Origin: a virus
Lineage: Duplodnaviria > Caudoviricetes
DNA length: 42,022 nt
IMG/VR virus record: IMGVR_UViG_3300025296_000034
Location: 1 to 42,022 of that record
Strand: one strand, 5' to 3'
Below, piece by piece: positions 8,922 through 40,065 of this stretch. A program made the position numbers and the translations under genes. A model generated the notes under the pieces. The model worked only from the letters and a program-made list of their open reading frames with translations. It searched no databases and was not told where the DNA came from. How positions within the stretch are numbered: position 1 is the first letter of the stretch; every line of letters starts with the position of its first letter.

Positions 8922-9452
8922 ATGGAAGCGTTTGGCGGACAGGAGCTCGCGGGGCTGGCAGCCCTGCTGTTTGTTTTTGTGGGCCTGTGGGGTTGCGGCA
9001 CAACGTCGAGCTTTCTCGACGCTGCGCTGCCCGACCGCTACGGGCTGGGCTCGTCGTTTACTTCTGGTGGTTATAGTGGGCGTCAGATTGGTCAGACGGG
9101 AGCGGATACGATTCGAGAAACGGGCAAGTACGAGCTAGACAGCATCGTCACTTGGCTCGAATGGGATATTCCCTCGGTGGGGGCTGACCCCGTTTCCGTG
9201 CGCGGCGTGCGCGAGCGCGTTGTGCAGGACTACCGCGATTGGCGGGAGCCCGAGCCTGAGAAGGAGTCGCTCCTGTCCGTCACGCGCCACACCTCGGTCG
9301 ACGAGGCGACTGGTGCGGTCAGCGAGTCGTGGTCGTTTGGTGCAGCCGAGGCGCTGAGTAGCGCGCTGATTGGGCTACTCAGCTTCCTCGGCTTCAGGCT
9401 CGCGCGGTCGCGGTTCACCGGATCGTCGGCAGTTGCCGAAGACGACGGCTAG
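8922..9452 (+). CDS. Putative lipoprotein with C-terminal TM helix
   Basis: GAGG RBS; hydrophobic leader ending LWGC; C-terminal hydrophobic ALIGLLSFLGF. Confidence 0.6.
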   Translation: MEAFGGQELAGLAALLFVFVGLWGCGTTSSFLDAALPDRYGLGSSFTSGGYSGRQIGQTGADTIRETGKYELDSIVTWLEWDIPSVGADPVSVRGVRERVVQDYRDWREPEPEKESLLSVTRHTSVDEATGAVSESWSFGAAEALSSALIGLLSFLGFRLARSRFTGSSAVAEDDG

Positions 9453-9895
9453 CCCTCCTCGATTGGACCGACCGTGATGTACGCGCCGCACCGCGTGGCG
9501 TCATCCGAGTAGGTCTTCTCGCCAGAGATCTCGACGACCTGTGCGTCATTCGCGAACAGCGGTCCCTCGAGGGCGTCGAGCACAGCTCGCAACAGCTTGT
9601 CAACGTCGGGAGACTTCGCTCGGTGCGTCGGGACGCCGTCCTTGAGCGCGCCGCTCGCACGGTAGTGAGACTTGGGTCGTGGCATGGCGAAGCGCACGTC
9701 AACTCGCAGCGCGCCTGTGAGCGCGCGTGGTGCGTGCTCCTGCGCGACGGCGTGCAGGGCGGTCATCCAGTCGCGCAGGTTCTCTCCCGCCGACTCGACC
9801 ATGACTGGCCGCGTCCCGCCCTTGGGGATGAAGGCTCTCTTCGATCCCTTCGGGCGGGGCACGCCGAACACGGCGAAGCTGACCGCGCCGGTCAC
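9449..9895 (-). CDS. rusA: RusA-family Holliday junction resolvase
   Basis: GVPRPKGSKR, FAMPRPKSH, PDVDKLLRAVLDAL and DAQV motifs; GTG start at 9895 overlaps the upstream stop. Confidence 0.9.
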   Translation of the reverse strand: MTGAVSFAVFGVPRPKGSKRAFIPKGGTRPVMVESAGENLRDWMTALHAVAQEHAPRALTGALRVDVRFAMPRPKSHYRASGALKDGVPTHRAKSPDVDKLLRAVLDALEGPLFANDAQVVEISGEKTYSDDATRCGAYITVGPIEEG

Positions 9896-10011
9896 AGCAC
9901 CAGAAGAGCGATGAGTGTGAGCCAGAACAGCAGGCAGCACCCGCACGCGATGGGACAACCGGGGTAGCGCAACCCCTCCCTGGTCAGGTTGAGGTCGCGC
10001 GGGTCGCTCAT
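9892..10011 (-). CDS. 39-aa Cys-rich membrane peptide
   Basis: MSDPRDLNLTREGLRYPGCPIACGCCLLFWLTLIALLVL; ATGA and GTGA overlaps with recT and rusA. Confidence 0.5.
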   Translation of the reverse strand: MSDPRDLNLTREGLRYPGCPIACGCCLLFWLTLIALLVL

Positions 10012-10703
10012 TCCGCCGGTCGAGGCGCGATAGCCTCCACCTCTCTCACGGTGTTGAGCGGAGAGCTGTAGTCCTGCAACTCCTCGCGAACCGCGAGCCC
10101 CCCCAGGCAGTCCGCGAAGAGGTCGCGCATCGCCCAGGCCATCGAGCGCACCCGCAGCATCCGCATGGGGTACTCGGTCCATGGACCCTTCTTGCCCCAG
10201 AGCCTCGCCCGCTTGGCGTCAGCGACTGAGAATCGTCTGGTCACGGACGCGCCACCTGTGCGCGACAGGCTGGTCGCCGCCGTCAGGCTGTCGGGGAAGG
10301 CCCCGGCGGGCGGGTCTTCAAAAGCCTCGCCGTCAACCTCCCAGCACTCGGTCCAGCCCTCGACCTTCCCGCTGGCCTCGACGAGCCCCTTAGCCCCCTC
10401 ACCCCAGATCGCTGCGCGTCCGTTGATCACGGCGATGTAGTTTAGGGACTGCATGGGCTTGAGCCCAACCTCCGCGCCAGCCTGCAACGCGATGACAATT
10501 TGGCCGCGAGTCCGCAGCCCCTTGGGCGCGAGCCCCTCCGACAGGATCAACTGCGCAAACTGCAAGAGGTCGGTCGTGTTGTTGAGGGCCAGACCATGCT
10601 CGGTAAACTCGAGCACGGGCTTGGTGTTGTCAGACGAGGGAACGGCCAGGGTTTCCTCGATGGGGGGCGGGTCGGGTTGCCCGCCGTCGTCGCTAGCTCT
10701 CAT
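10008..10703 (-). CDS. recT: RecT/Redbeta-like single-strand annealing protein
   Basis: GAEVGLKPMQSL..IAVINGR..WG, PWTEYPMRML..RDLFAD.LGGL..EE; in an operon with a RecE-like exonuclease. Confidence 0.8.
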   Translation of the reverse strand: MRASDDGGQPDPPPIEETLAVPSSDNTKPVLEFTEHGLALNNTTDLLQFAQLILSEGLAPKGLRTRGQIVIALQAGAEVGLKPMQSLNYIAVINGRAAIWGEGAKGLVEASGKVEGWTECWEVDGEAFEDPPAGAFPDSLTAATSLSRTGGASVTRRFSVADAKRARLWGKKGPWTEYPMRMLRVRSMAWAMRDLFADCLGGLAVREELQDYSSPLNTVREVEAIAPRPAE

Positions 10704-10953
10704 GCGCTACCTCCTTTGTCGCCGCCGCGAGGGCCTCCAGGCGGTGGAGTACTTCCCCCGCCTGCGCCTCGATGGCGCGCAGGGTTGCGATGATATCGTC
10801 CGAGTACAGGGTGTACCCGTTTTCCTCTGGGTCGCTGTAAGTTGGGCTGGACTTCACGGCCAGCTCGAGCCAGCCGTGCGGCGTTCCGCTGCTGGCTGAG
10901 AACAGGTCGCCTGTCACCTTCACGCGGGTGACGTTGTGTTGGCTAAACTCCAT
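10693..10953 (-). CDS. Hypothetical protein
   Basis: ATG at 10953 (or 10959) after GAGGA; fills the gap between exonuclease and recT with overlaps. Confidence 0.6.
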   Translation of the reverse strand: MEFSQHNVTRVKVTGDLFSASSGTPHGWLELAVKSSPTYSDPEENGYTLYSDDIIATLRAIEAQAGEVLHRLEALAAATKEVAHES

Positions 10954-11842
10954 CGGCATAGTCCTCGGGGTACTGGAATTCGTCGTAGTACATAGGCAGC
11001 TCGCCGCTGTGGACGTGCGTCGAGTAGTCGGGGAAGTTGCCGGTGTCCTGGCACCAGCGGACAACCTCGAGCATGCGGTCAAGCTCGCGGTTGGCTAGCT
11101 CTCGCGTAGAGCCGCCAAGCTCGAAGACTGCCGCGTGGTGAGGCGGGGTCGGCTCGAACGCCACGAAGGCGAAGGCGTAGCCGTCACCGAAGATGGGGTC
11201 GGGCGTGACGCCTCGAATCGTTTGCACCCCTCGCGTGTAGAAGGCGTCCTGGATGTGCAGGCGCATCTTCGGCACGGTCGAGTTGAAGAAGGTGGCCGGG
11301 CGCACAGAGTGCGTGCGCTTCAGGTCGACGATGGTCATGCCGCCGGTCATGTTGTCGAAGAGCCGGTCGAGCCGCGCCTTGCACCGCACGCCGTGGGCAA
11401 CGTCGTCCCAGACCACGGTGACCTCGCTGTCCTCGCGCTCGCCCTCGAGCAGAACGCGCGCCGCCTCGCAGCGGTGTACCGCGTTGGCAATCCCTAGCGA
11501 CTCGTCGCGCACACTTCCTTCGATGACCTCGAGCCCTTCATGCTCGGCAAGCCACTCGGCTTTCGCTTCGCGGCCTCCATCGTAGCCCTTCTCCACGGCG
11601 TTCTCGTCCTTCATGCCGCCGTGAAAGCGCGGCATCACCGCGACGGTGCTCTCGAATCGCTCAGGCTCGAGAACCGCCATGTGCGTGTACGTCCCGCCCT
11701 TCATGGCGAGCGTCTCCTCCCTCTCCTCCGCGTGCTTGAACGCCGCCGGGGAGTGGAAAAGGCGTAGGAGCTGGGAGCGAGACACCGCGTCGATGGCGAG
11801 GTACTCGTCCCAGCTCAGGTTGGGGAAGATTCCAGGGTTCAA
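10943..11842 (-). CDS. RecE/exonuclease VIII-like PD-(D/E)XK nuclease (DUF3799-like)
   Basis: SRSQL, GTYTHMAVLEP, CKARLD, IVDLKRT and Q.AFY motifs. Confidence 0.88.
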   Translation of the reverse strand: MNPGIFPNLSWDEYLAIDAVSRSQLLRLFHSPAAFKHAEEREETLAMKGGTYTHMAVLEPERFESTVAVMPRFHGGMKDENAVEKGYDGGREAKAEWLAEHEGLEVIEGSVRDESLGIANAVHRCEAARVLLEGEREDSEVTVVWDDVAHGVRCKARLDRLFDNMTGGMTIVDLKRTHSVRPATFFNSTVPKMRLHIQDAFYTRGVQTIRGVTPDPIFGDGYAFAFVAFEPTPPHHAAVFELGGSTRELANRELDRMLEVVRWCQDTGNFPDYSTHVHSGELPMYYDEFQYPEDYADGV

Positions 11843-12177
11843 CGCTTCGCCCTCTTGCAGGTAGGCTGGTGTTTGGCGAGCCCCTGGGGTGCGAACTTCC
11901 TACCGCAGCCGGGACAGCGTTGGTTCTTCGTGTAGGTGCGCCCCTTCAGCGGCGAGTCTCCGTTGTTGCGGTGTCCGCGAACGGCGTGGCCGGGGGCGGG
12001 CTCGACGTTAGCGGGGGAGATGATGCTGGCGTAAGCGTGCAGGTGCTGGCGAAGCTCGGCCTCGAACAGGTCGAGGGCTCGTCGCAGCACGACGTACTGC
12101 GGCACGCCTACCGCTTCGGCTGTTGTGCGCAGTCGCGCGTCTTCCTTGCTGGATGCGTGTTTCGTTGCCTTGGTCAT
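11839..12177 (-). CDS. Putative DNA-binding protein (ribbon-helix-helix-like plus C2HC zinc finger)
   Basis: ATG 12177 overlaps the upstream TGA; AEAVGVPQYVVLRRALDLF; CPGCGRKF..LAKHQPTC. Confidence 0.6.
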   Translation of the reverse strand: MTKATKHASSKEDARLRTTAEAVGVPQYVVLRRALDLFEAELRQHLHAYASIISPANVEPAPGHAVRGHRNNGDSPLKGRTYTKNQRCPGCGRKFAPQGLAKHQPTCKRAKR

Positions 12178-12320
12178 CGGGGGCTCCGTTGTCGTGGTTT
12201 GTTCCAGTACGGCGACTGACATTTAGGGCAGCGCACGGGGCGATGAGCCACGCGGCCAACCCAACGGTGGCCGCACCGTTTGCAGGTGTGGCTCCGCCGT
12301 CGTCTTCTTGTTGTTGTCAT
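12174..12320 (-). CDS. Small basic zinc-ribbon protein
   Basis: CKRCGHRW..PVRCPKCQSPYWN; ATG at 12320. Confidence 0.75.
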   Translation of the reverse strand: MTTTRRRRRSHTCKRCGHRWVGRVAHRPVRCPKCQSPYWNKPRQRSPR

Positions 12321-12551
12321 GCCCCTACCACTACCAACTAGGGGCAGATGGGTCAAGGCCCGACCGGGGAGCAATCTGGCCGAGCCCTGACCCTGGTCGA
12401 CACCGTGCCGACCTGTGTGCGGTCGGGGGCTGGAAGGTGGGGCGAACGGGCCGGCCCCCCCTCGCCGTCGCGTTGGTGAGCCCGCTCGCCCCTCGGTTTG
12501 AAACCGATGACCCCCTCAGGGTAGGCGGACCAGAAATAGCCGTCAAGGCCC

Positions 12552-12580
12552 TTGCCCGTCACCGTGACGGGGCTCATTAT
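12552..12580 (+). promoter_or_regulatory. Sigma70-type promoter TTGCCC-N17-CATTAT overlapped by the palindromic operator CCCGTCAC-C-GTGACGGG (12555-12571)
   Basis: Canonical 17-nt spacing; initiator ATG lies 6 nt after the -10 box (leaderless geometry). Confidence 0.6.
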
Positions 12581-12586
12581 AGGTCC

Positions 12587-13354
12587 ATGACATTCGTGAA
12601 GCTGTATGCCACCATCCTCCGCTCGTCCATCTGGCTGGAGTCCCAGCCCACCCGCCTTGTTTGGATCGCCATGCTCGCCATGGCAGACGAGGCCGGGGTG
12701 GTCGAAGCCTCGGTCGGCGGGCTGGCCCACACCGCCAACGTCCCCCTCGATGACTGCCGTGAGGCGCTCAGGGTTCTCCTGTCGCCCGACCCAGACAGCC
12801 GCGACGGCACGACCGGCGAGCGCATCGAGAAGGTCGACGGCGGGTGGCTGGTGCTGAACCACGCCGTCTACCGGGACAAGCGCACAAGGCGGCAGATCCA
12901 GACCGCCGAGCGCACACGCCGCTGGCGAGAACGCACCCGCGTCACGGGTGACGATGTGACGTTGGGTGATGTCACGTCACACCCTGTACGCACAGATGCA
13001 GAGGCATATACAGATACAGAGAAGAAGAAGACCCCCCCTAACCCCCCCGCCAAGCGGAGGGGGAAGAGGGTGGAGGATCTTCCCATCCCCGACCCGCTGG
13101 ACACCGAGGGCTTCCGCACCATGTGGGCAGAGTGGATCGAGCACCGCAGGTTGATCAAGTCGCCCATGACGGCCCTGGCTGGCAAGCGCGTGCTCGCCAA
13201 GTGCGAGTCCATCGGGGAGGCAGAGGCCCGGCGCTGGATGGACAACGCCATCGAGAAGGGCTGGCGCGGGCTATACCCGCCGGGCGATGACGAGCAGGGC
13301 AGCGGCACTACCGCCGATGCCGACGAGGCCATCAAGGCCATGCTGGAGGATTGA
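12587..13354 (+). CDS. Phage replication initiator / replisome organiser (lambda O-like architecture)
   Basis: MTFVKLYATILRSSIW..RLVWIAMLAMAD N-domain; AERTRRWRER; TDAEAYTDTEKKK linker; C-terminal WAEWIEHR..AIEKGWRGL. Confidence 0.8.
   Translation: MTFVKLYATILRSSIWLESQPTRLVWIAMLAMADEAGVVEASVGGLAHTANVPLDDCREALRVLLSPDPDSRDGTTGERIEKVDGGWLVLNHAVYRDKRTRRQIQTAERTRRWRERTRVTGDDVTLGDVTSHPVRTDAEAYTDTEKKKTPPNPPAKRRGKRVEDLPIPDPLDTEGFRTMWAEWIEHRRLIKSPMTALAGKRVLAKCESIGEAEARRWMDNAIEKGWRGLYPPGDDEQGSGTTADADEAIKAMLED
12940..12980. repeat. Cluster of GTCAC/GTGAC pentamers inside the initiator gene (candidate origin iterons)
   Basis: cGTCACggGTGACgatGTGACgttgggtgatGTCACGTCAC lies in the linker region, where lambdoid origins sit. 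Confidence 0.45.
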
Positions 13355-13357
13355 CAC

Positions 13358-13747
13358 ATGCTTGCAAACGCCCAAGAGGCCCCCGACCGCACCTGGATTG
13401 ACGCCCACGTTCAGCTCTCCCTGGAGGGCTGGATCCAGGCGCTCAAGGAGACGTGGCCCGCCAAGTCCGTGGCTGGATCCCACATGGGCCGCGCCGAGCG
13501 CGCCGACTCGATCCGCACGGTGCTCGGCTGGAAGCGCCCGGCCTGGATTGCGTACCGCAGGCTGGTCGAGGAGTACGACGGAATCTGGGGCCGCACCAGC
13601 GAGGAGGCGGCTCGGCGCGAGCGAGCGGCGCAGAAGTTCATCGACACCCTACCGCTGCGTGAGGGGGGCTACCGCGAGGGCTGGAACCTAGGTCTGCACC
13701 TGCGCGCCTTGCGCTGGGCCGGGACCAAGCCCGTCAGCGCCGCCTGA
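13358..13747 (+). CDS. Hypothetical protein downstream of the initiator
   Basis: GGAGG RBS; 129 aa ORF; no recognised motif. Confidence 0.65.
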   Translation: MLANAQEAPDRTWIDAHVQLSLEGWIQALKETWPAKSVAGSHMGRAERADSIRTVLGWKRPAWIAYRRLVEEYDGIWGRTSEEAARRERAAQKFIDTLPLREGGYREGWNLGLHLRALRWAGTKPVSAA

Positions 13748-13840
13748 GCGCCACCAGGGCACGCGGGCCGCACAGGGCGACCCACGGGGCCTCGAGAGCC
13801 AAAGTCCAGCAGGGAGGCTTACAGCCCCGCTCAGGCGGAG

Positions 13841-13897
13841 GGAGCCCCCTACCGGAGCCCTACCGGATTAGGGCCGGATCAGGGCCGGATCAGGGCC
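13841..13897. repeat. 11-bp-period tandem repeat (CCGGAKYMSSD-like units)
   Basis: CCGGA at 13852, 13863, 13874 and 13885; units ccggagcccta / ccggattaggg / ccggatcaggg / ccggatcaggg. Confidence 0.8.
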
Positions 13898-13900
13898 AAG

Positions 13901-13939
13901 AAAAAAGCCCTCGCCAGCAGAGGAGGTGCTGGCGAGGGC
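13901..13939 (-). terminator. Rho-independent terminator of the leftward operon
   Basis: Perfect 13-bp stem GCCCTCGCCAGCA / TGCTGGCGAGGGC, 7-nt loop, then T6 on the minus strand, just after the XRE gene stop. Confidence 0.9.
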
Positions 13940-13963
13940 CAAGGGGGGCTCGACCGTGAACCC

Positions 13964-14305
13964 CTACCCGCGCGGAATCCAGGTTAGCTCGTAGTCCATG
14001 CGCAGGCAACCCTTCGGCACGCGCAGGGCGTGCTCGAGCATGTCGGCCTGCAGTCGGGTCGGGCGCGTGTCCCCACGCTCGTACCGAGCCAGGGTTCCCA
14101 GGTTCAGGTCTTGCCCGTACTCGGCCCGCATGCGCTCGGCTAACTGCTCGAGGCTCAGGTCCGCACCAGCCACACGCGCCGCACGCATCGACCGCCCGCT
14201 GAAGTCATCGTCACGGGTGACGTTGGCGGTCAGCTCGCGAGCGGTGGCGCGCAGCGACTCACGGATCTCGTCGTCCGACATCCGCGCCGTCATGGTCTTA
14301 GTCAT
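13964..14305 (-). CDS. XRE-family helix-turn-helix regulator
   Basis: MRAARVAGADLSLEQLAERM..TLARYERGDTRP..LEHALRV. Confidence 0.85.
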   Translation of the reverse strand: MTKTMTARMSDDEIRESLRATARELTANVTRDDDFSGRSMRAARVAGADLSLEQLAERMRAEYGQDLNLGTLARYERGDTRPTRLQADMLEHALRVPKGCLRMDYELTWIPRG

Positions 14306-14537
14306 CGCCTCCCTCCTCCGTCTGGCCGAGCCCGTACTTAGCCTCGAGCCCTTCGATCCCAGTCTTCACGACCAGCCGGTCGACCGCGCGCACGTTGAGC
14401 ACGGCCCACGCCAGGGCGTCGTCTTCCTCGATGGACGAGTAGATTTTGGAGATGCGTACCTGCTGCGGTTCGGTCAGCGGGACGCGGCGGATCTTCTTCG
14501 CGCTGTCGTCTGCGAAATTGTCTTCTTGCTCGCTCAT
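14298..14537 (-). CDS. Hypothetical protein
   Basis: AAGGAG RBS; ATGA overlap with the upstream peptide gene. Confidence 0.65.
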   Translation of the reverse strand: MSEQEDNFADDSAKKIRRVPLTEPQQVRISKIYSSIEEDDALAWAVLNVRAVDRLVVKTGIEGLEAKYGLGQTEEGGDD

Positions 14538-14668
14538 AGCCACTCCTTGGGGTTGTGGTGGGTGCCGCCACTCGGCGGCTCGTTGATGTCCTCGATCCAG
14601 GCTGCAGCGTTCAAAAGAATGAGCGCCGCGAAGCCTACGGCGAGGAGGATGGTGATGGCTGTGGTCAT
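14534..14668 (-). CDS. 44-aa single-TM peptide (not in ORF track)
   Basis: MTTAITILLAVGFAALILLNAAAWIEDINEPPSGGTHHNPKEWL; AGGAG RBS; ATGA overlaps at both ends. Confidence 0.65.
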   Translation of the reverse strand: MTTAITILLAVGFAALILLNAAAWIEDINEPPSGGTHHNPKEWL

Positions 14669-15729
14669 AGCGTGGTAGTCTCCTGGGGTTGGCCCGCCTC
14701 GCTAACGCTAGGCAGGTGCGTGATTACTTCATAGTGCTCGCCGCCGTGGGTGGCCTTCCTAGGCCCAACCCAAGACTCGCGGACCAGCACACGCTGGCCT
14801 CGCTTCAGTCGAAAGCGAGGGCTGTCCAGCCGCCGCCAATGTGCGCGCCGACGATGCGGCGCTCGCCCGATGTGGTCGCCCCCCTCGTTGGGGATGCGCA
14901 GGACTCGGTCAAGGCTGCGATCAGGCACGACGATGTAGCGCGAACGCTTCTCTCGCCGCTTCTTGCCGCCGCGCTTTACCACGCGGGCATGCTCGTCAAT
15001 AACGCGCACGACCCAGTTGGCGGGAGAGTTGGCCGTCTCGAGCAGGATCAGCCCGCGCAAGGCAACCTCCACCGCCGCTTCCGTGAAGTTGCGCCCAGGA
15101 CCGCCGCCCGCAGGGCTGTCAGGCTCTACGAAACTCATAACGGGGCCGTGGACGCTCTCCTCCCAGAATGTCCCCGGCGTACACTTACCCGTGGAGGGGG
15201 AGAACCACCCATGCGAGAGCATGCGGTGTTCAAGGTGTATCTGGGGTTCCCCGGCAGACCCCGCCCCGGCGAACAGGCTGTCGGAGTTGGTGGCCGCGCT
15301 CAGGGGGCTGACGCCACGCAGGAGAAGCGTGGTGAGGGTCACGTCGCGGTGGTTCTCGTTCCGGATGACCAGAAGAACGGGCCACTCCACCTCGCCTCGC
15401 CCCAGCCCGAGCTCATGCCCGACCGGGCGCTGCACAATGACGAGCGACGCCCCACGCGGATCGCCCTCCTTCGCGTCCCATGTGCCCGGCACCGAGAACT
15501 CGGCAGCGCAGAGCGGGAAGGGGAGAAAGAAGGTGTCGGGCGACAGCCGCTCTACGGGGCCAAGGGTGGGCTCGTCCCGCCCGCCCGTAAAGTCGAAGAC
15601 GCTGGCGGTGGCGGCGATCTGGCCTATCGGCGGCATCAGCCCGTCGATCCAGTCGCGCGCACGCCCGGCGTCATCGCACCGCGCATCCATCCTGTCGACG
15701 AGCTTCGCGAAGGTCGACCAGAGGCTCAC
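14665..15729 (-). CDS. Phage protein with C-terminal PHxRRxHWR..WVGP motif, function unknown
   Basis: RAPHRRRAHWRRL..VLVRESWVGP; GGAGG RBS; GTGA overlap. Confidence 0.75.
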   Translation of the reverse strand: MSLWSTFAKLVDRMDARCDDAGRARDWIDGLMPPIGQIAATASVFDFTGGRDEPTLGPVERLSPDTFFLPFPLCAAEFSVPGTWDAKEGDPRGASLVIVQRPVGHELGLGRGEVEWPVLLVIRNENHRDVTLTTLLLRGVSPLSAATNSDSLFAGAGSAGEPQIHLEHRMLSHGWFSPSTGKCTPGTFWEESVHGPVMSFVEPDSPAGGGPGRNFTEAAVEVALRGLILLETANSPANWVVRVIDEHARVVKRGGKKRREKRSRYIVVPDRSLDRVLRIPNEGGDHIGRAPHRRRAHWRRLDSPRFRLKRGQRVLVRESWVGPRKATHGGEHYEVITHLPSVSEAGQPQETTTL

Positions 15730-16190
15730 GGCTGCACCTCCTTCTTGGAGTAGTAGCCATAGACGCAGCGGGTGCCGTCGCGGCTGGGGTCATGGATGTC
15801 GTGAATGACTCCGTCCACGACAGCGCACAGGTGCTTCGACAGGCGCGCAATCAAGCGACCCGAGGGAAGCTCGTCGGCGCGTAGGTGAACCTTGCACCCT
15901 TGCCCAATCTTCATGGTGGGTGTCCACGTCCATCCCTGGTCAAGGAGCCACTGGTGGTACACCTCCTTGTGAACGCCGCCCGTCACGCTGCTGCGACCGC
16001 TCAGTCGCTTCCGCTTGCCCGCCGCCGCCTTCCTGTTTAGTTCGGTGCATCGCGGGCGAAGGGCGTCCGCCACATCCTCGTAGCGGATCTGCCCGGCGAT
16101 GGCGATTGCGCGCACAACGCAATCACCTTTGCCTTTGATTGACTCCGGCTTTCCGCCGTCATCGAAGACCCAGGCGTTGAGGAGTTTCAC
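15726..16190 (-). CDS. Putative papain-like cysteine peptidase-fold protein
   Basis: GDCVVRAIAIA..KHLCAVVDGVIHD gives a Cys-His-Asp arrangement; AAGGAGG RBS. Confidence 0.6.
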   Translation of the reverse strand: MKLLNAWVFDDGGKPESIKGKGDCVVRAIAIAGQIRYEDVADALRPRCTELNRKAAAGKRKRLSGRSSVTGGVHKEVYHQWLLDQGWTWTPTMKIGQGCKVHLRADELPSGRLIARLSKHLCAVVDGVIHDIHDPSRDGTRCVYGYYSKKEVQP

Positions 16191-16933
16191 GGCGTCACCT
16201 CCTTGGCGAGGGCATCCACGCGCCGCTTCGCGCCAGCGACAGCGGCCTCGCTCGGCAGCGACACCAACTCCGTGGTGCCCTCATCCCAACTCATCTCGAC
16301 GCCAACGTCGCTGTTCTCGAGGAACTCCTCGAGGCTCTGCGGCGGGAGGAAGACGCGGACGGACGCCTCGTTCTCCTCGTAGGTGTTGCCCCCGTCCACG
16401 ATGTCGGCGTGCGCGCCACCGAGTATGAGGGCGGCGTCCATCGCCTCCTCCAGATCGCTGCGCGTGCGCCCGGTAAGAAACTGGCCCGTTTCGTCGTAGT
16501 CCCAGAACTGGCCTACGCGGAGGTCGATGGGGACCATCTCGACAGGAATCTCCCGAGCTGGGAAGCCGAGAGAGAGTGCAGTCTCCCGCGTCAAGATCAG
16601 CCGCGTCTCGCGGTGGGCGGTGCCGAAGCTGTCAACCTCGAAGCCCACGACGCTCTCGACAACGACGAGTGGGCCGTGCTCGCCGTCGAGGGCGACGGTC
16701 GCGGCAGGCCCCACGTCTGTGGGCGAAGGACCAAAGTAGCTCTCTGCGTCAGCTCGCAGGATCCAGGTCCAGCGCAGCGGGCCTTCGCCGTCAGGTGGCG
16801 TGATGCTTTTCACAACGTGCGACGCGCCAGCATCGGTCAGCGTGACGGTCACCGCCCCGGCGGGCGAGACGGCAAGGAACCGCAGCTTGTACGGCAAGCG
16901 CGCGGCGGGTATGTCGAAGATTATGGATGTCAT
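16187..16933 (-). CDS. Hypothetical acidic protein
   Basis: ATG 16933 after AGGA; GTGA overlap with the next gene. Confidence 0.7.
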   Translation of the reverse strand: MTSIIFDIPAARLPYKLRFLAVSPAGAVTVTLTDAGASHVVKSITPPDGEGPLRWTWILRADAESYFGPSPTDVGPAATVALDGEHGPLVVVESVVGFEVDSFGTAHRETRLILTRETALSLGFPAREIPVEMVPIDLRVGQFWDYDETGQFLTGRTRSDLEEAMDAALILGGAHADIVDGGNTYEENEASVRVFLPPQSLEEFLENSDVGVEMSWDEGTTELVSLPSEAAVAGAKRRVDALAKEVTP

Positions 16934-16974
16934 CGGGTTTCCTAGTAGGGGGCTACGGTCAGGCCCACGCTGGC

Positions 16975-17052
16975 TGCGTGTCATTCGAGCGTGACCGGGC
17001 TGCGTGTCATTCGAGCGTGACCGCCGGCGTGGATGCGTGTCATTCGAGCGTG
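16975..17052. repeat. Three exact copies of a 19-bp repeat TGCGTGTCATTCGAGCGTG
   Basis: Copies at 16975-16993, 17001-17019 and 17034-17052; the last contains the methyltransferase stop codon. Confidence 0.95.
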
Positions 17053-18579
17053 GGCCATAGCAGTCGCACGGCTCTCTCAGCTTGTGCGGGGACCACGCTG
17101 TTGCCCAGGGCTCTCAGCCGATCGGTTCTGTATCGCTGGGCAGCGTCCACCAGATCGGAAAGCCCATCAGCCACTCCACGAAGGTCGGGTTGAGTCGGCG
17201 CTTCTCCGAGAGCTGGGTGGAGGAACTCGGGGATGCTTCCCCAGTTGTCGCCGGGGCCGGGGGGGAAGGCAGGTAAGGGCTGTGGTCCCACTCCTCTATC
17301 GAGGGACACGGGCACTCGTGGGCGTGGATCGCGTGGATATTGCACAGGTAATTCTCGCAGTCCGGGCACGGCGTCCACGCCGGCGTCTGTTCTTGGTGAT
17401 GCACTGCGAAGTTCGCGACCTGTAGATCTCCCCCCCCGCTCTCGTGGCGCCCCAGTTCCTGCTTGCGTTGGGCGCTCTCCGCTCCTCCCGTCAGCGCCCT
17501 GGGCGTCGGCCACTGTCGGCCCTCCGAGTTCCCGCTCACCGCTGCATCCGTGAGAGACACGCCTTTGTTCGCCTTTGAGTTTGGGGTGTTCCTCGACCCC
17601 GCCGCCTTGTGATCCCCTGCTGTCGGCGTCGGCCACTGCAGACTCGCGATCGTCAGCGGCGTCCCTGCGCCGTTGCTGTTGTAGCCCTTCTTCTTCAGTT
17701 CTTCCCGACGAGCCAGCCAGGTCGTGGGGTCTTCCCCGTCCTGAGAGATCCTCGCATTCGGCGTCGGCCATGCTTCTCTGGGAACCTCCTTCGGCCACTG
17801 CCCCGCCTGGATCTCCGCTACCTGTTCCAGCCCCGGCGAGCTGCTCTGCCCCCCCCCTGACCGGCGACCGTTGTTCACCGACCTCTCCATCGCCCGCGCG
17901 CTCTTGCGATTCGTTCCCGCGCAGGGCGTCGGCCACTCCCTCGCCATCCCCTCGAGGATGGGTTCGTTGCGGCTTGTTGTAAGCCACATGAGCCCCCCCC
18001 GAGGTCGGGGTTGACCACTCCTTCTCGGAGCCATCGGCCACACTCGGAGGAGTCGAGGTCGCGGTCCCAGGCGCAGATGAACAGCCGCTCCCGGCGATGC
18101 GGTGCGCCGACATCAGACGCACGCACAAGGCCCCAGCGCGCATCGAACCCCAGCGAGGCAAGGTCGGAGAGGACAACGTCGAATCCCAGGCGAAGGTGCC
18201 CTGCGACGTTTTCAAAGAATGCGAATCGTGGTCGTACCACGCGAAGGGTGTCGCGGATGGCCGGCCAGAGATGACGCTCGTCGTCGGCACCCTTGCGGGA
18301 ACCGGCGTGGCTGAAAGGCTGACACGGGTAGCCACCGCAGACGAGGTCGATGCTTCCGGCAAGAGGTCGCAGGTCCAGCTCACGCAGGTCTCCGCACCAA
18401 ACAGGCGCTGGATCCAGGGCCTCGTCCTCCATCCGTCCCAGGAGGACGGACGCACAGAAGGGGTCCCGCTCGACATAGGCCACCACTCGCGCATGGAGTG
18501 CGCGGCGGATCCCGAGGTCGAGACCCCCGATGCCTGAGCAGAGCGATAGCACGCGGAGGGGAGTATCCACATCGGTCAT
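17040..18579 (-). CDS. DNA (cytosine-5) methyltransferase, alpha-type polypeptide, frameshifted near a G8 tract (17993-18000)
   Basis: Motifs I (SLCSGIGG), IV (GGYPCQPFS), VI (ENV) and VIII (HRRERLF) are in ORF 17875-18579; motif X (RLRALGNSV) is in frame 17040-18572; deleting one G gives a continuous 512-aa ORF. Confidence 0.85.
17114..18572 (-). CDS. Overprinted alternative-frame WPTP-repeat polypeptide carrying MTase motif IX (beta-type subunit), frameshifted in the same region
   Basis: N-part MWILPS..SLKTSQ..LPRWGSMRAG; repeats WSTP and WPTP x4; C-terminal RRLNPTFVEWLMGFP; deleting the same G gives a 485-aa ORF. Confidence 0.65.
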
Positions 18580-18818
18580 GTCCTTTCCGGCGCCGAGCCG
18601 GGGACGGCAGCTTCGTGGTAGAGCGCGTAAACGGCGGTGCCGTCATCGAGGTGACGCTCGAGGCGGTCCTCGGTCGTGCCCGTGAAGGTGACGCTGATAG
18701 GCGCGACGCCAACCTTGCTGGCGCGCTTGTTGATTCGCTCCACGCGCTTGTGGACCTCATCGAGGAGGTCTTCGCGCACGAAGGCGGAGGAGGCTTCGGT
18801 CGTGGTTGTGGTGGTCAT
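18576..18818 (-). CDS. Hypothetical protein, possibly a truncated N-terminal fragment
   Basis: 80 aa; TGATG and ATGA overlaps with both neighbours. Confidence 0.6.
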   Translation of the reverse strand: MTTTTTTEASSAFVREDLLDEVHKRVERINKRASKVGVAPISVTFTGTTEDRLERHLDDGTAVYALYHEAAVPGSAPERT

Positions 18819-19240
18819 CAGCCGTTCTCCCTGGCGTAGGTGCGCTGCGCGGCGAGCCCGCAGTCCTCGCAGAGGTATTCCTCCTCCACCGAGGTGAACT
18901 CGTCGCTGCAGCCGTCGCCGCAGTTGTGGCAGTAGTGAGGCTTGGACTGGTCGACCTCGATGCTGTGGATCACGGACTCGGACAGGTCGCCCATCCCGGT
19001 GAAGAGGCCGCGACGGCGAATCTCAGCGAAGTACACGGAGATCTCGTCGCGGTAGTAGCCGCCGGTCTTGCCCTTGCAGGCACCGGCAAGCTCGAGAGCG
19101 TCAGCGGCAACTGCCGCTTCGTGCGCGTCGCGACAGGCACCGCAGAGTTGCGCGAGGTCCATCTCGCGAGCACGGGCGGCGAGCGCAGCCCAGTCAGGGC
19201 TGGCGTCGCGCGGGGAGGCGGGGATGTGATAGGTGGTCAT
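18818..19240 (-). CDS. Hypothetical protein with C-terminal zinc finger
   Basis: ATG 19240 after AAGGA; CHNCG..LCEDC. Confidence 0.7.
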   Translation of the reverse strand: MTTYHIPASPRDASPDWAALAARAREMDLAQLCGACRDAHEAAVAADALELAGACKGKTGGYYRDEISVYFAEIRRRGLFTGMGDLSESVIHSIEVDQSKPHYCHNCGDGCSDEFTSVEEEYLCEDCGLAAQRTYARENG

Positions 19241-19263
19241 CGGTCGGTTCCTTCTAGGTTGTT

Positions 19264-19311
19264 GGTTTCGCCCTGCCGGGCTCATCAGGTGCGCGGCGTC
19301 AGCGCACGACC
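19264..19311 (-). ncRNA. Type III hammerhead ribozyme
   Basis: Minus strand reads GGUC^ GUGCGC-UGACGCC-GCGCAC CUGAUGA GCCC-GGCA-GGGC GAAA CC: intact core, GUC triplet, 6-bp stem I, 4-bp stem II, 3-bp stem III. Confidence 0.85.
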
Positions 19312-19335
19312 GGGGCCGAAGCCCCTTTCGGTCAT
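19285..19335 (-). CDS. Possible 16-aa ORF spanning the ribozyme (MTERGFGPGRALTPRT)
   Basis: GGAGG 7 nt before the ATG; ATGA overlap with the upstream stop; its TGA is the first UGA of CUGAUGA. Confidence 0.4.
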   Translation of the reverse strand: MTERGFGPGRALTPRT

Positions 19336-19592
19336 CGCACGCCCTCCGTGAGGTTCTGGAGTCGGACACCGTCCAGGAGGCCGCGACCGTAGGCTTCCGC
19401 CTCGCGGATCCCGTGGGCCGTGTTGATCCTCTCGGAGATATTCATGGTCTTCTGGTAGAAGTAATATCTGGTCACGCCGTCGCCGCTGGCGAGAACGCAG
19501 GGGCCTCCCCGCCGAACGGTCACATAGGGCAGTTGGCATTCGAGCCGACCCCGAAGGGCCTGGAAGCGTTGTTTGTTGGATTGGGTGGTCAT
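19332..19592 (-). CDS. Early hypothetical protein
   Basis: 86 aa; AAAGG RBS and shared ACAGACCGATGAC start cassette. Confidence 0.7.
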   Translation of the reverse strand: MTTQSNKQRFQALRGRLECQLPYVTVRRGGPCVLASGDGVTRYYFYQKTMNISERINTAHGIREAEAYGRGLLDGVRLQNLTEGVR

Positions 19593-19631
19593 CGGTCTGT
19601 ACCTTTCGGGGTGTTGGGGGTTGGTCGGATG

Positions 19632-20006
19632 TTAGAGGAGGGCGTCGTTGTGCGCCTCGACGCCGAAGGCCATGCCTTGCTGCTGCGCGTACTCGTCGCG
19701 GTCTGCACGCTCGTCGGCGGCGGCGGCGGCGGTACGGTCGGTTGCAGTCTCTTTGCGCAGGCAGCGCACGCGCAGGGTCTTCAGGGAGGCGAGCCCCTCG
19801 TTGGTGCGCGTACCCTGAGCCAGTTCAACCCACAGTTCCCCGCCCGTCTGGAACGGGCATTCAGCGACGTGATCGGCGCTGGGGCGAGAGAAGGCGGTGC
19901 AGGCTTCCTTCAGGGTGGAAAAGTCCGCGCCATCCCAGCATTGGTCAAGTTCGAGGCGCGGGTCGGATCCGTGGTAGTTGATGGAGTAGTTGCTGATGTT
20001 CTTCAT
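19632..20006 (-). CDS. Early hypothetical protein
   Basis: ATG 20006 within the repeated GAACGGAGACCAAGCCATGAAGAAC cassette; 124 aa. Confidence 0.75.
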   Translation of the reverse strand: MKNISNYSINYHGSDPRLELDQCWDGADFSTLKEACTAFSRPSADHVAECPFQTGGELWVELAQGTRTNEGLASLKTLRVRCLRKETATDRTAAAAADERADRDEYAQQQGMAFGVEAHNDALL

Positions 20007-20323
20007 GGCTTGGTCTCCGTTCTTGGTGTGGTGTGGTGGTGAGTGGTTAGGAGCGGCTGCGAAGCCACGCGATGTTGCGGAGAGATTCCCGAGTTTGCCC
20101 GGAGAGGTGAACATCTTCAGAGAGGAAGTCGGCAGGCATACGGCGTCCTGTTTTCGAGACGGCGAAGCCTTCGATGACTCGACCGCTTGCTATCAGCGCG
20201 TCCATAGCGGGCTCTCCTGCCGCGTAGCCGCCCACGGTGTCCCAGTTGAAATTCGCTCCAGGCTTCTTCGCCAAGATGGCGATGATGAGGTCGGTGGGGT
20301 TCTTCATGGCTTGGTCTCCGTTC
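19998..20323. repeat. Exact 25-bp direct repeat (19998-20022, 20299-20323) covering the RBS and first codons of two adjacent genes
   Basis: GTTCTTCATGGCTTGGTCTCCGTTC present twice. Confidence 0.95.
20047..20307 (-). CDS. Early hypothetical protein
   Basis: ATG 20307 within the same 25-bp cassette; 86 aa. Confidence 0.75.
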   Translation of the reverse strand: MKNPTDLIIAILAKKPGANFNWDTVGGYAAGEPAMDALIASGRVIEGFAVSKTGRRMPADFLSEDVHLSGQTRESLRNIAWLRSRS

Positions 20324-20348
20324 GGGGTAGGTGGTGAGGAGTCAGGGG

Positions 20349-20621
20349 TTAGAAGGGCTGGCCGTGGGGGCCGAACTTGAGCAGCTCGAACTCGTCCTTG
20401 GTGGGCTGGTCGCACTCGTCGCAGACTCCGAGGGTGACTAGCTCGGCCTTCAGCGCATCGTCGTGGGCGACGATCTGGGACAGCGCATCCTCGTCAACGG
20501 GGGCGTATCCGATGAACTCGTCGCGTGACCCGTACATACTTGTGTCGGAGATTGCCTCGTAGGTGGCGCGGGCAGCTTCGCGGAGTGCGAGGAGGGTTTC
20601 GATGCGGGAGTCGTGTGTCAT
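20349..20621 (-). CDS. First gene of the leftward early operon; acidic hypothetical protein
   Basis: AAGGA RBS; 90 aa; one CxxC. Confidence 0.7.
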   Translation of the reverse strand: MTHDSRIETLLALREAARATYEAISDTSMYGSRDEFIGYAPVDEDALSQIVAHDDALKAELVTLGVCDECDQPTKDEFELLKFGPHGQPF

Positions 20622-20648
20622 CGGTCTGTCCTTGTGGGTAGTGGTTAG

Positions 20649-20679
20649 CCGTCACCGTGACGGTAGGAGGAGACTAGCA
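20649..20679 (-). promoter_or_regulatory. Extended -10 early promoter (TGcTAGTCT) with operator CCGTCAC-C-GTGACGG (20649-20663) at the predicted start site
   Basis: TGn-TAGTCT on the minus strand at 20679-20671; the palindrome is identical to the one at 12556-12570. Confidence 0.55.
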
Positions 20680-20843
20680 CAGGATCGACCGGAGGGGGAG
20701 GCACCTTCTGCAAGAAAGTTGCACGGACGCAAGAAAGTGTCACAGGGCAAACCCTTGAAAATGAGGGATTTACGAGCAGGATCACCTACTTGCTACCGAT
20801 TCTGGCGCTTTACAGCTCTGAGATTTCTCCCCGAGGCAGCGAC

Positions 20844-21362
20844 ATGACCCAGGACATCACCGTTACAGGACAGGTCACAGCCGTCATCCTCCGCGCAGAC
20901 GGCTCGGTGAGGCAGAAGCTCGAGGGCAATAACCTCGTCACTACCATGGGGCTGCGGCACTACGCTGAGAGGTTCGAGGAGTCGTTCAACGGCACAGCCG
21001 TCACCAGCACCTTCACGACCTTTGTCGTAGGCACAGGCTCCACCGCCGCCGACATTGGCGATGACATGGCGGACATGACCCAGTTCACCGGCACCACGGG
21101 CGAGCAGGTGCTCGCGTCGGGCTACCCCAAGATCGACGACGACGACACGGACAACAGCGGGCGAGGGGCGTTCGTCCTGACCTGGCACGCGAGCTACGGC
21201 ACGGGTACGACACTCTCGGCAATCAGGGAGGTGGCTATCAGCATCGCAGCGCCGGAGGAGGTCACGCCTGACCCGCTGCTCATGCGGCACGTCTTCGGTG
21301 CGCCATTCACGAAGACCACCGACGAGACGCTGAAGATCTTCGTCAATCACACGCTCGCCTGA
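20844..21362 (+). CDS. Virion structural protein (head/tail accessory)
   Basis: NLVTTMG..VVGTG..IREVAI..MRHVF..KTTDETLKI pattern of phage structural proteins; GAGG RBS. Confidence 0.6.
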   Translation: MTQDITVTGQVTAVILRADGSVRQKLEGNNLVTTMGLRHYAERFEESFNGTAVTSTFTTFVVGTGSTAADIGDDMADMTQFTGTTGEQVLASGYPKIDDDDTDNSGRGAFVLTWHASYGTGTTLSAIREVAISIAAPEEVTPDPLLMRHVFGAPFTKTTDETLKIFVNHTLA

Positions 21363-38529: not shown

Positions 38530-40065
38530 ATGGCAATCATCACAGGAGAAGACTGGTATCGCGGACTTCAGGGTCTGGCCGCTACGGCTCGCGGCATAGC
38601 CGGGTACGAGTTGCAGAAGCGCAAGGACGAGGAGGCGCGCAAGGATGTCGAGCTAAAGCGCCGTGTGCTGGCTGACGAGATCAAGTGGCAGGTTCAGCGG
38701 CGCGAGCGTGAGCTTGTCGAGCAGCAGCAGGCAGACGAGGACCGCGCTCGTCAGGCGCAGGAGCGCGCGACTGCCGAGGGCCGAGCGCAGCTAGAGAGCG
38801 GGGTCTGGAGCGAGCGTTACGGTCGTGAGGCGGGCGCTGCGGAGACTGAGCAGTTCAGGCGTGGCATGGATCGCCTGCTGGAGCAGGATCCGATAGCGCC
38901 CCAGGAGCTTCGCGGTGGTGTTGCGCGGGGAGGCCCTGTTTTGGGACCGGCGTTCGGTATGGGTGAGGCCGTGGCGCGGCGCGGGGAGGCTGTGGGTCAA
39001 GGTATGGCCCCAGATGTCGCGTGGCATCAGTCGGTGAAGGAGCAGTTGCTTGGTATCCGCGACCGTGGGCTCCGCACGGAACTCTTCGAGGAGATCCAGA
39101 ATGAGAGGGAGACGGAACTCGTCATCGGGAACCTCTCGAAGGAGCGCCGCCGAATGCGCGACTACATGCGCAAGGGGACCATGCCCGAGGCCGAGGGGGA
39201 GGCGTATCTCGAGCTGTTGCGGGGGATTGAAGAGAGCGGCGTTGGCGTAGACGCGATGGAGGCAAAACACGATGAGGTGAAGGCGGAGATAGACGCGGTT
39301 GTCGGTGCCTCTAGACGCCAGAAAAACTCCATCAGGTCGTGGGAGCGCGAGGCCGCAGCGTTTGAGGATTACCGGACTGGCATCTCGGAGCGCGAGAAGG
39401 AGGACGGCATCACCGCGCCGCGCGGGCGGGAAGAGGCGTTCGACGAGAGAATAGACAGCCTAGATGACCGCTGGTCGGAGATGAGCAAAGAGGAGAGGTC
39501 GCAAGCGTGGTCGGATCTGAAGAAGGACTATCGCGCCTACAAAGGGGAAACCCAGGGGCAGCCCCCCGCCGCCGCCCCCAAGTCTTTCCGCCAGACAGAG
39601 ATGGAGCGGATGATCCTGTTAGCTTCAGAGATGGACCCCCGCATCCCGGGCGGTTTTGCTGGGCGGTTGCGGCGTGCTGGTCTGAACGAAGAGCAGGCTG
39701 CGGCGGTTGTTGCGGCCACAGATGCCGGGGCCGACCTCGAGGGGGTGGCTAGCGCGGCGTTGGGTGGCGCGGTTCCAGATAAGGTCGGGTGGTTTGCCTC
39801 GCGCGACCCTCGCGACGTGGGTGGACGAACCGACATCCCTACGAATATGGAGCTGGAAGGGATGTCCGAGCGCCAGAGGACAGAGAGGCTGGACGGGCTG
39901 GGCAGCGATGAGATTCGCGCGCTCGGGGAGAGGGTTGGTCTAGCTCCCGCCGAGGAGCTGGGGGCGCTGTCCGAAGAAGACCTGACTGCCCTGCTGGCCG
40001 AGAAGGGGCCCAGCTATCACTATCTCATAGCGAAGCTCGTTGAGCTTGTCCCGCTCGAAGACTGA
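38530..40065 (+). CDS. Internal virion / DNA ejection protein
   Basis: GAGGAG RBS; Glu/Arg-rich coiled coil; lies between the small and giant ejection genes. Confidence 0.7.
   Translation: MAIITGEDWYRGLQGLAATARGIAGYELQKRKDEEARKDVELKRRVLADEIKWQVQRRERELVEQQQADEDRARQAQERATAEGRAQLESGVWSERYGREAGAAETEQFRRGMDRLLEQDPIAPQELRGGVARGGPVLGPAFGMGEAVARRGEAVGQGMAPDVAWHQSVKEQLLGIRDRGLRTELFEEIQNERETELVIGNLSKERRRMRDYMRKGTMPEAEGEAYLELLRGIEESGVGVDAMEAKHDEVKAEIDAVVGASRRQKNSIRSWEREAAAFEDYRTGISEREKEDGITAPRGREEAFDERIDSLDDRWSEMSKEERSQAWSDLKKDYRAYKGETQGQPPAAAPKSFRQTEMERMILLASEMDPRIPGGFAGRLRRAGLNEEQAAAVVAATDAGADLEGVASAALGGAVPDKVGWFASRDPRDVGGRTDIPTNMELEGMSERQRTERLDGLGSDEIRALGERVGLAPAEELGALSEEDLTALLAEKGPSYHYLIAKLVELVPLED

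Follow-up and report, generated by a model that had tools for sequence, protein, structure and literature searches.

The question raised by this locus is whether the gap between two small phage genes encodes a self-cleaving ribozyme and, if so, what cleavage would mean for the message in which it lies. The window (the whole stretch of DNA that was analysed, 42,022 nucleotides) is a whole 42-kb contig, which carries terminase, RecT-like, exonuclease VIII-like, RusA-like and methyltransferase genes and has a GC content of 65%. It had been proposed before, from the letters alone, that the minus strand of the gap specifies an unannotated type III hammerhead, which would split an early polycistron upstream of the methyltransferase (the original prediction). 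Direct reading of the minus strand from 19311 to 19264 gave exactly the sequence quoted there. Judged by this sequence, the segment is an intact type III hammerhead motif, for which cleavage is predicted. The features of the locus are listed in Table 1.

Table 1. Coordinates of the hammerhead motif and of the elements around it
Feature	Position	Strand	Description or basis
Type III hammerhead ribozyme motif, intact core	19264..19311	minus	sequence, Rfam match, shuffles, pair list, custom model
Stem I	19307-19302 with 19294-19289 (within 19289..19307)	minus	6 Watson-Crick pairs, 7-nt loop UGACGCC
Core CUGAUGA	19288-19282	minus	sequence
Stem II	19281-19278 with 19273-19270 (within 19270..19281)	minus	4 pairs, loop GGCA
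GAAA box	19269-19266	minus	sequence
Stem III	19311-19309 with 19264-19266	minus	3 pairs, U-A included
GUC triplet	19310-19308	minus	predicted cut between 19308 and 19307
GC hairpin GGGGC-UUCG-GCCCC	19312..19325	minus	UUCG loop; flush against stem III
Strand of the predicted anti-ribozyme helix	19330..19343	minus	last codons and stop of upstream gene; predicted pairing to cleavage strand and stem I
16-codon ORF	19285..19335	minus	ATG overlaps upstream stop (ATGA); GGAGG 7 nt before; ends at core UGA
Upstream ORF, 86 aa	19592-19332	minus	no PHROG match
Leader of downstream gene	19241..19263	minus	AAGGA at 19253-19249
Downstream ORF, 140 aa, Cys-rich C-terminus	19240-18818	minus	no PHROG match; one other homologue (82 aa)
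13-bp direct repeat, copy 1	19584..19596	minus	around upstream start codon; boundary of 352-bp unit
13-bp direct repeat, copy 2	19232..19244	minus	around downstream start codon; other boundary of 352-bp unit
Strong intrinsic-terminator-like hairpin	13906..13940	minus	end of the leftward gene run holding the ribozyme

All bases of the hammerhead core (C3 U4 G5 A6 N7 G8 A9 and G12 A13 A14 A15) are present. The cleavage triplet conforms to the NUH rule, with U16.1 opposite A15.1 (U19309 with A19266); stems I and II are closed by loops, stem III is open, and the G10.1-C11.1 pair is represented by G19281-C19270. The type III topology with both boxes and three stems was confirmed by the sequence, the pair list and the shuffle test described below, and the pair list also showed that the cut after GUC, 67 nt before the downstream ATG (19240), had been placed correctly in the original prediction. 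With the Rfam family RF00008 (Hammerhead_3) the motif shares the common core, the GUC triplet, the three-way junction and the open stem III, whereas its loop I is longer, its loop II shorter and its stem III reduced to three pairs, a length also found in 6/64 members of the viral family described below.

The two catalytic boxes by themselves are compatible with chance: the window has 2 matches where 1.15 would be expected, and the second of these (at 39517) is inside a coding ORF. The full-topology descriptor had one match in the window, and 1000 dinucleotide shuffles yielded three loose matches and none with stems of 6, 4 and 3 pairs. A chance origin of the motif was ruled out by the lack of an equally strong match in the 1000 shuffles.

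RF00008 matched the motif over model positions 5-50 of 54 with 25.8 bits (E 0.0055 in a 1001-base search), which is below its gathering score, a curation threshold, of 48.5 bits. No Rfam gathering score was reached anywhere in the window, and for this reason the motif is, as had been claimed, unannotated. Other clear phage copies scored about 40 bits and thus also fell short of 48.5; the RF00008 model therefore under-calls the phage class of hammerheads. For a custom model, 48 representative copies were taken from other viral contigs and the three with a 7-nt loop II excluded, which left 45 for training. The model gave 60.6 bits here, a value that is partly by design, as the training set was selected for the same geometry, and that indicates likeness rather than independent proof; the next best match in the window had 10.5 bits. 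The covariance-model search named as a check in the original prediction was thus positive in that both models recognized the motif, and negative with respect to the RF00008 gathering score. Rfam, the box search, the descriptor and the custom model detected no further hammerhead in the window, where the motif is a single copy.

Similar motifs are frequent in viral contigs. One stem III variant alone was present at 122 loci (about 250 stretches estimated), and a descriptor search gave 86 matches in 73 of 125 sources. Context statistics were derived from 64 representatives with enough flank, taken from 187 matches in 245 loci. A Shine-Dalgarno sequence and a start codon followed within 70 nt in 48/64, the values for the opposite strand and for random positions being 3/64 and 9.6%. 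A GC hairpin ended at most 15 nt upstream in 24/64 (random, 11.7%), and in 16 of these it was at most 1 nt away. Upstream 35-mers had z values below -2 in 19/76 cases, against 7/76 further upstream, and the enrichment of upstream stop codons was weak (41/64 versus 32/64 on the other strand). The idea that a flush hairpin compensates for a short stem III was not supported, such hairpins being present in 1/6 members with 3-bp, 7/15 with 4-bp and 8/43 with at least 5-bp stems.

Loop I contains GCC (19297-19295) and loop II the complementary GGC (19277-19275), allowing three possible pairs. In a metagenome scan with loop II fixed and loop I free, loop I ended in GCC in 17 of 20 representatives, one of which was the window's own sequence in the close relative L173. 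In the first viral set GCC or GCU was found in six of the seven copies with GGCA, and GCC in none of the 51 with other loops. A geometry-only scan, which imposed no pairing constraint, yielded at least 121 loci; among the matches listed, 114 of 123 had a perfect 6-bp stem I and a full stem II. Among these listed matches, all three loop-loop positions were paired in register in 31/60 representatives (18.8% when permuted) and not in the remaining 29/60, values whose significance is overstated by permutation because the representatives are not phylogenetically independent. At least seven complementary loop variants occurred (GCC/GGC, GCU/AGC, GAC/GUC, CCC/GGG, AUC/GAU, UCU/AGA and UUA/UAA), and in a 45-sequence alignment 68% of the loop-loop cells were paired, with all three pairs changed on both sides. 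The covariation in related phages that had been suggested as a check was thus found in the loop-loop pairs, and it indicates that loops I and II probably form a tertiary contact.

The first base of loop I is U and the last of loop II is A, as expected for the conserved reverse Hoogsteen pair. In type III hammerheads of viroids and satellites (sTRSV, CChMVd) the loop-loop motif (PMC6155905, available part) likewise has U first in loop I and A last in loop II. In contrast to that motif, the family of the present copy adds three covarying Watson-Crick loop-loop pairs, and the U:A:U triple is uncertain here because of the base 5' of the final A and the C ending loop I.

In the gap, the stop codon of the 86-aa gene is followed by the hairpin, the ribozyme, the AAGGA leader and the ATG of the 140-aa gene; the methyltransferase is two genes further on. 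The ribozyme sits in a leftward run of small genes, which starts at 20621 and is divergent from large rightward genes. Between 20621 and 14642 no minus-strand terminator-like site was found, and the one at 14642 is weak. We infer that the leftward run is one early transcript, the label "early" resting on gene content and position because no sigma-70-like promoter was detected in 9000-21000. The three gaps upstream of the ribozyme gap contain unstructured leaders and no ribozyme. The six sequencing runs that matched the phage best were marine DNA; there were no RNA runs among the 23 runs listed with the phage, which is neutral as to expression.

Several other features of this region were observed. 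Hairpin, ribozyme and leader lie between the two copies of an 8-bp repeat (19337 and 19242), an arrangement suggestive of their insertion into a coupled stop-start junction. The 16-codon ORF that ends in the core is possibly incidental; a small ORF running into the ribozyme was seen in 6/64 family members, a count made without a control. Between 20651 and 19232 (minus strand) the small leftward genes have repeated C/A-rich leaders of two families, ending in GACCGATG or AAGCCATG, and these leaders are likely exchange points for gene cassettes. The methyltransferase is split over two overlapping frames (18579-17875 and 18043-17114, minus strand), each of which matches methyltransferase PHROGs. 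In the gap after it, a 26-nt repeat occurs three times (16972-17056), and L125, the second close relative, has 10 gap openings over the surrounding stretch. Between convergent genes, the non-coding DNA at 13966-13750 (minus strand) is long and strongly structured; it includes short tandem repeats and a terminator-like hairpin of 14 bp.

Comparison with the two close relatives showed what the ribozyme is associated with. L125, which is 99.9% identical upstream, lacks a 352-bp segment bounded by the two 13-bp repeats and running from the start codon of the upstream gene to that of the downstream gene. The upstream gene, the hairpin, the ribozyme and the leader are missing from it, whereas the downstream genes including the methyltransferase region are retained. 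In L173 (99.8%) an identical ribozyme copy is followed by a different gene (51 aa). The ribozyme is an accessory module tied to the upstream gene and not to the methyltransferase: L125 keeps the methyltransferase without the ribozyme, and in L173 the ribozyme precedes another gene. These two relatives contradict the association with the methyltransferase contained in the original prediction, and we rejected it. Because L125 does without the whole unit and the three upstream gaps are ribozyme-free, the ribozyme must be dispensable. As to persistence at homologous loci, which had also been raised originally, the answer was mixed, one close relative having an identical copy and the other none. 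Diverged orthologous loci were not found, the downstream protein leading to one locus and one 82-aa homologue and the upstream protein to none; nor was there a DNA match among cultured phages. In the four sequencing runs examined, a 151-nt contig (depth 2.6) with a third downstream leader and a 403-nt contig diverging just before the upstream stop gave weak hints of further variants. Variable neighbouring genes, as in L125 and L173, are also a property of the phage hammerheads described by Perreault et al.

Polycistron processing is the best reading of the locus and agrees with the family context, in which the hammerheads are in sense orientation with a ribosome-binding site just downstream. 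We estimate at about 70 per cent the probability that the ribozyme, as its sequence suggests, cuts the leftward, probably early, polycistronic mRNA of the phage at the site given in Table 1. Hammerhead cleavage generates an upstream piece ending in a 2',3'-cyclic phosphate and a downstream piece with a 5'-OH. At its 3' end the upstream product would carry the UUCG hairpin, its last bases being folded back, so that 3' exonucleases would be slowed. In the downstream product the 5'-OH would be directly on the stem I hairpin, an end on which RppH and RNase E would act poorly, and the piece would keep its own ribosome-binding site. The message could in this way be punctuated into separately stabilised pieces with no need for host RNases, and the ribozyme would travel with the upstream gene as a 352-bp cassette exchanged at the shared start-codon repeats. 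Protection from RppH and RNase E by 5' structure is documented in PMC3997798 (available part).

Polycistron processing by phage hammerheads is not a new idea. Perreault et al. 2011 (PMC3088659, referred to throughout by the available part of its text) described hammerheads that flank variable prophage genes and proposed that they cut transcripts into operon- or gene-length mRNAs; prophage hammerheads cleaved native transcripts of about 2 kb in vitro and in E. coli. The HHphage of haloviruses HF1 and HF2 is 13 nt before the start codon of an early gene. The motif studied here is likewise in sense orientation, between phage genes and just before a start codon, and its stems of 6 and 4 pairs agree with what is given in that work. 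It differs in being a single copy outside any cluster, clustering being common and not required. The flush hairpin, the U-NNN-GCC / GGC-A register and the 352-bp indel are not mentioned in that part of PMC3088659, whose supplementary figures may show the register.

Folding predictions, made with an energy model that ignores the loop-loop contact and Mg, complicate this picture. At 37 C the hammerhead is predicted to be the fold of lowest energy when the RNA contains the motif alone or the motif plus hairpin (e.g. 19325-19255). From 19300 on, before stem I is complete, the predicted minimum-energy fold is instead the helix between the end of the upstream gene and the cleavage strand (anti-helix, Table 1). 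In a fixed window the active fold costs 7.1 kcal/mol, a value reached by 3/64 family members. This copy may thus be slow, as the family median is 2.1. The predicted cost is 9.0 kcal/mol in the naked transcript and 2.3 when the upstream gene and its stop are masked; once the downstream start region is present it is 5.0, and with both ribosome sites masked 2.2. By these values, and as a less firm conclusion, cutting would probably be efficient when ribosomes cover the upstream gene, as in coupled transcription-translation. For the in vitro assay suggested with the original prediction, the anti-helix means that a naked full-context transcript could be cleaved poorly. The original prediction had mentioned the upstream hairpin, but neither the anti-helix nor the loop-loop contact.

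These folds invite a reading that refines, and overlaps with, polycistron cutting: the ribozyme would be held off by the end of the upstream gene and cut only during its translation, with gating as the selected function. As the cut would also remove a strand that pairs beside the downstream start, downstream expression would come to depend on upstream translation. The fall in fold cost on masking and the early appearance of the anti-helix point this way, and the alternative fold is predicted to overlap the translated region, as expected of a translation-controlled switch. When the nine final codons of the upstream gene were recoded synonymously at random, only 17 of 500 variants were as inhibitory. 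Among random upstream stretches from this GC-rich genome the number was 48 of 500, and the helix had been seen before the test was devised. The exact complementarity of 19312-19307, on the cleavage strand, to 19246-19241, next to the downstream start codon, speaks for the same reading, yet the downstream complement belongs to a leader motif found before several genes of the phage, and its last base differs in L173. In the family the alternative pairing is not conserved. Fold-back on the cleavage strand among 81 representatives was 0.519 against 0.512 for shuffled sequences (p 0.82), and a 5-nt complement near the start codon was present in 2/48, so that neither fold-back over the triplet nor pairing with the downstream start region can be regarded as a conserved family design. 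Taking into account also that the energy model leaves out Mg and the loop-loop contact, we consider a translation-gated switch unlikely; the anti-helix is peculiar to this copy and may be an accident of its GC-rich genome. It is correspondingly doubtful that this is a natural hammerhead switched by translation, in which folding is decided by ribosomes that terminate on the upstream gene, or that translate the 16-codon ORF as far as the core, and the downstream start region is released by the cut. If it were, this would be a new mode of hammerhead control, phage mRNA processing would report host translation, and the swappable gene-hairpin-ribozyme-leader cassette would be a natural insulator.

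Other outcomes of the same facts have to be weighed against polycistron cutting. With all core bases, both stems and the loop-loop contact intact, and with a predicted fold cost that falls to the family median on masking of the upstream gene, it is quite unlikely that the motif is a slow or dead passenger, which arrived with the cassette, misfolds in this context and has little effect on the mRNA. That view could draw on the strong competing folds, the short stem III, the L125 relative without ribozyme, and the outcome for consensus hammerheads in PMC3088659, where 14 of the 18 tested were active and 4 inactive; the identical L173 copy speaks against it, even if a 99.8% relative is too close to show selection. 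Cleavage might also act as a dampener: from the 140-aa gene on, through the methyltransferase and the genes behind it, the message would become open to decay by 5' exonucleases and expression would fall. RNase J1 degrades the 5'-OH RNA left by glmS self-cleavage (PMC3997798, available part), and the best terminase matches (33-35% identical or lower) are uninformative for the host, which, if it has RNase J, could degrade the 5'-OH end. However, the downstream piece would have a fully paired hairpin at its very 5' end and retain its ribosome-binding site, and the three or four hammerheads that several phages (L001, L016, L047, L134) carry, each before a nearby gene, fit punctuation better, and we regard lowered expression as distinctly unlikely. 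A role in cassette mobility, in which gene-length or circular RNAs set free by the ribozyme would be reverse-transcribed into DNA, is extremely improbable. The ribozyme is gained and lost together with its gene, and there are relatives with genes flanked by hammerheads on both sides, but the phage has a single copy and the available text of PMC3088659 reports no spliced or circular products. DNA recombination suffices for the exchange, because the difference to L125 is bounded by repeats and RecT-like and exonuclease VIII-like proteins are encoded.

Synthetic insulators of the RiboJ type cleave themselves just before the ribosome-binding site, so that the mRNA begins at a defined 5'-OH and is capped by a hairpin. 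The putative polycistron-cutting ribozyme differs from these in being natural, in lying between two genes and in having an extra hairpin on the upstream product. Like the glmS riboswitch-ribozyme (PMC3997798, available part), it is predicted to leave a 5'-OH by self-cleavage before an ORF; in contrast to glmS, it has another fold, comes with no evidence for a ligand, and its downstream product would begin with a hairpin. The biological purpose of such hammerheads is called unresolved in the available parts of PMC6765202 and PMC10085705. A literature search, most subscription papers lying outside it, found no report that phage hammerheads have an upstream hairpin or are gated by translation. 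Phage ribozymes of this kind are common and already described; what is unusual here is a predicted fold that forms only during upstream translation. The family statistics (ribosome-binding site downstream, flush hairpin upstream, covarying loop contact) sharpen the model of punctuation or insulation and reveal a phage class missed by the Rfam threshold. For a compact test, natural controls exist in the close relatives, which differ in the presence of the 352-bp unit and in the gene downstream.

The searches also turned up other arrangements of the hammerhead. Three or four type III hammerheads, spaced by about 200-1500 nt, form arrays in L016/L017, L046/L047, L134, L148, L171, L175 and L180, many members having their own upstream hairpin and downstream ribosome-binding site. 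In five contigs (L128, L135, L137, L161 and L165) the same hammerhead subtype is present on both strands, about 265-290 nt apart, and L128 has a terminal redundancy with a period of 2138 nt; these are probably circular RNA replicons with ambisense ribozymes. L136, a contig of 1172 nt, contains three copies at intervals of about 441 nt, resembling a repeat or a circular RNA. Finally, the subtype is preceded by a conserved element of about 45 nt in L141, L169 and L172 and in six marine Rhodobacterales genomes (L304-L309; Ruegeria, Tropicibacter and others), in the latter with no start codon close behind and, in L309, with a convergent ORF with a P-loop motif nearby. Some of these Rhodobacterales carriers are cultured strains and hence testable.
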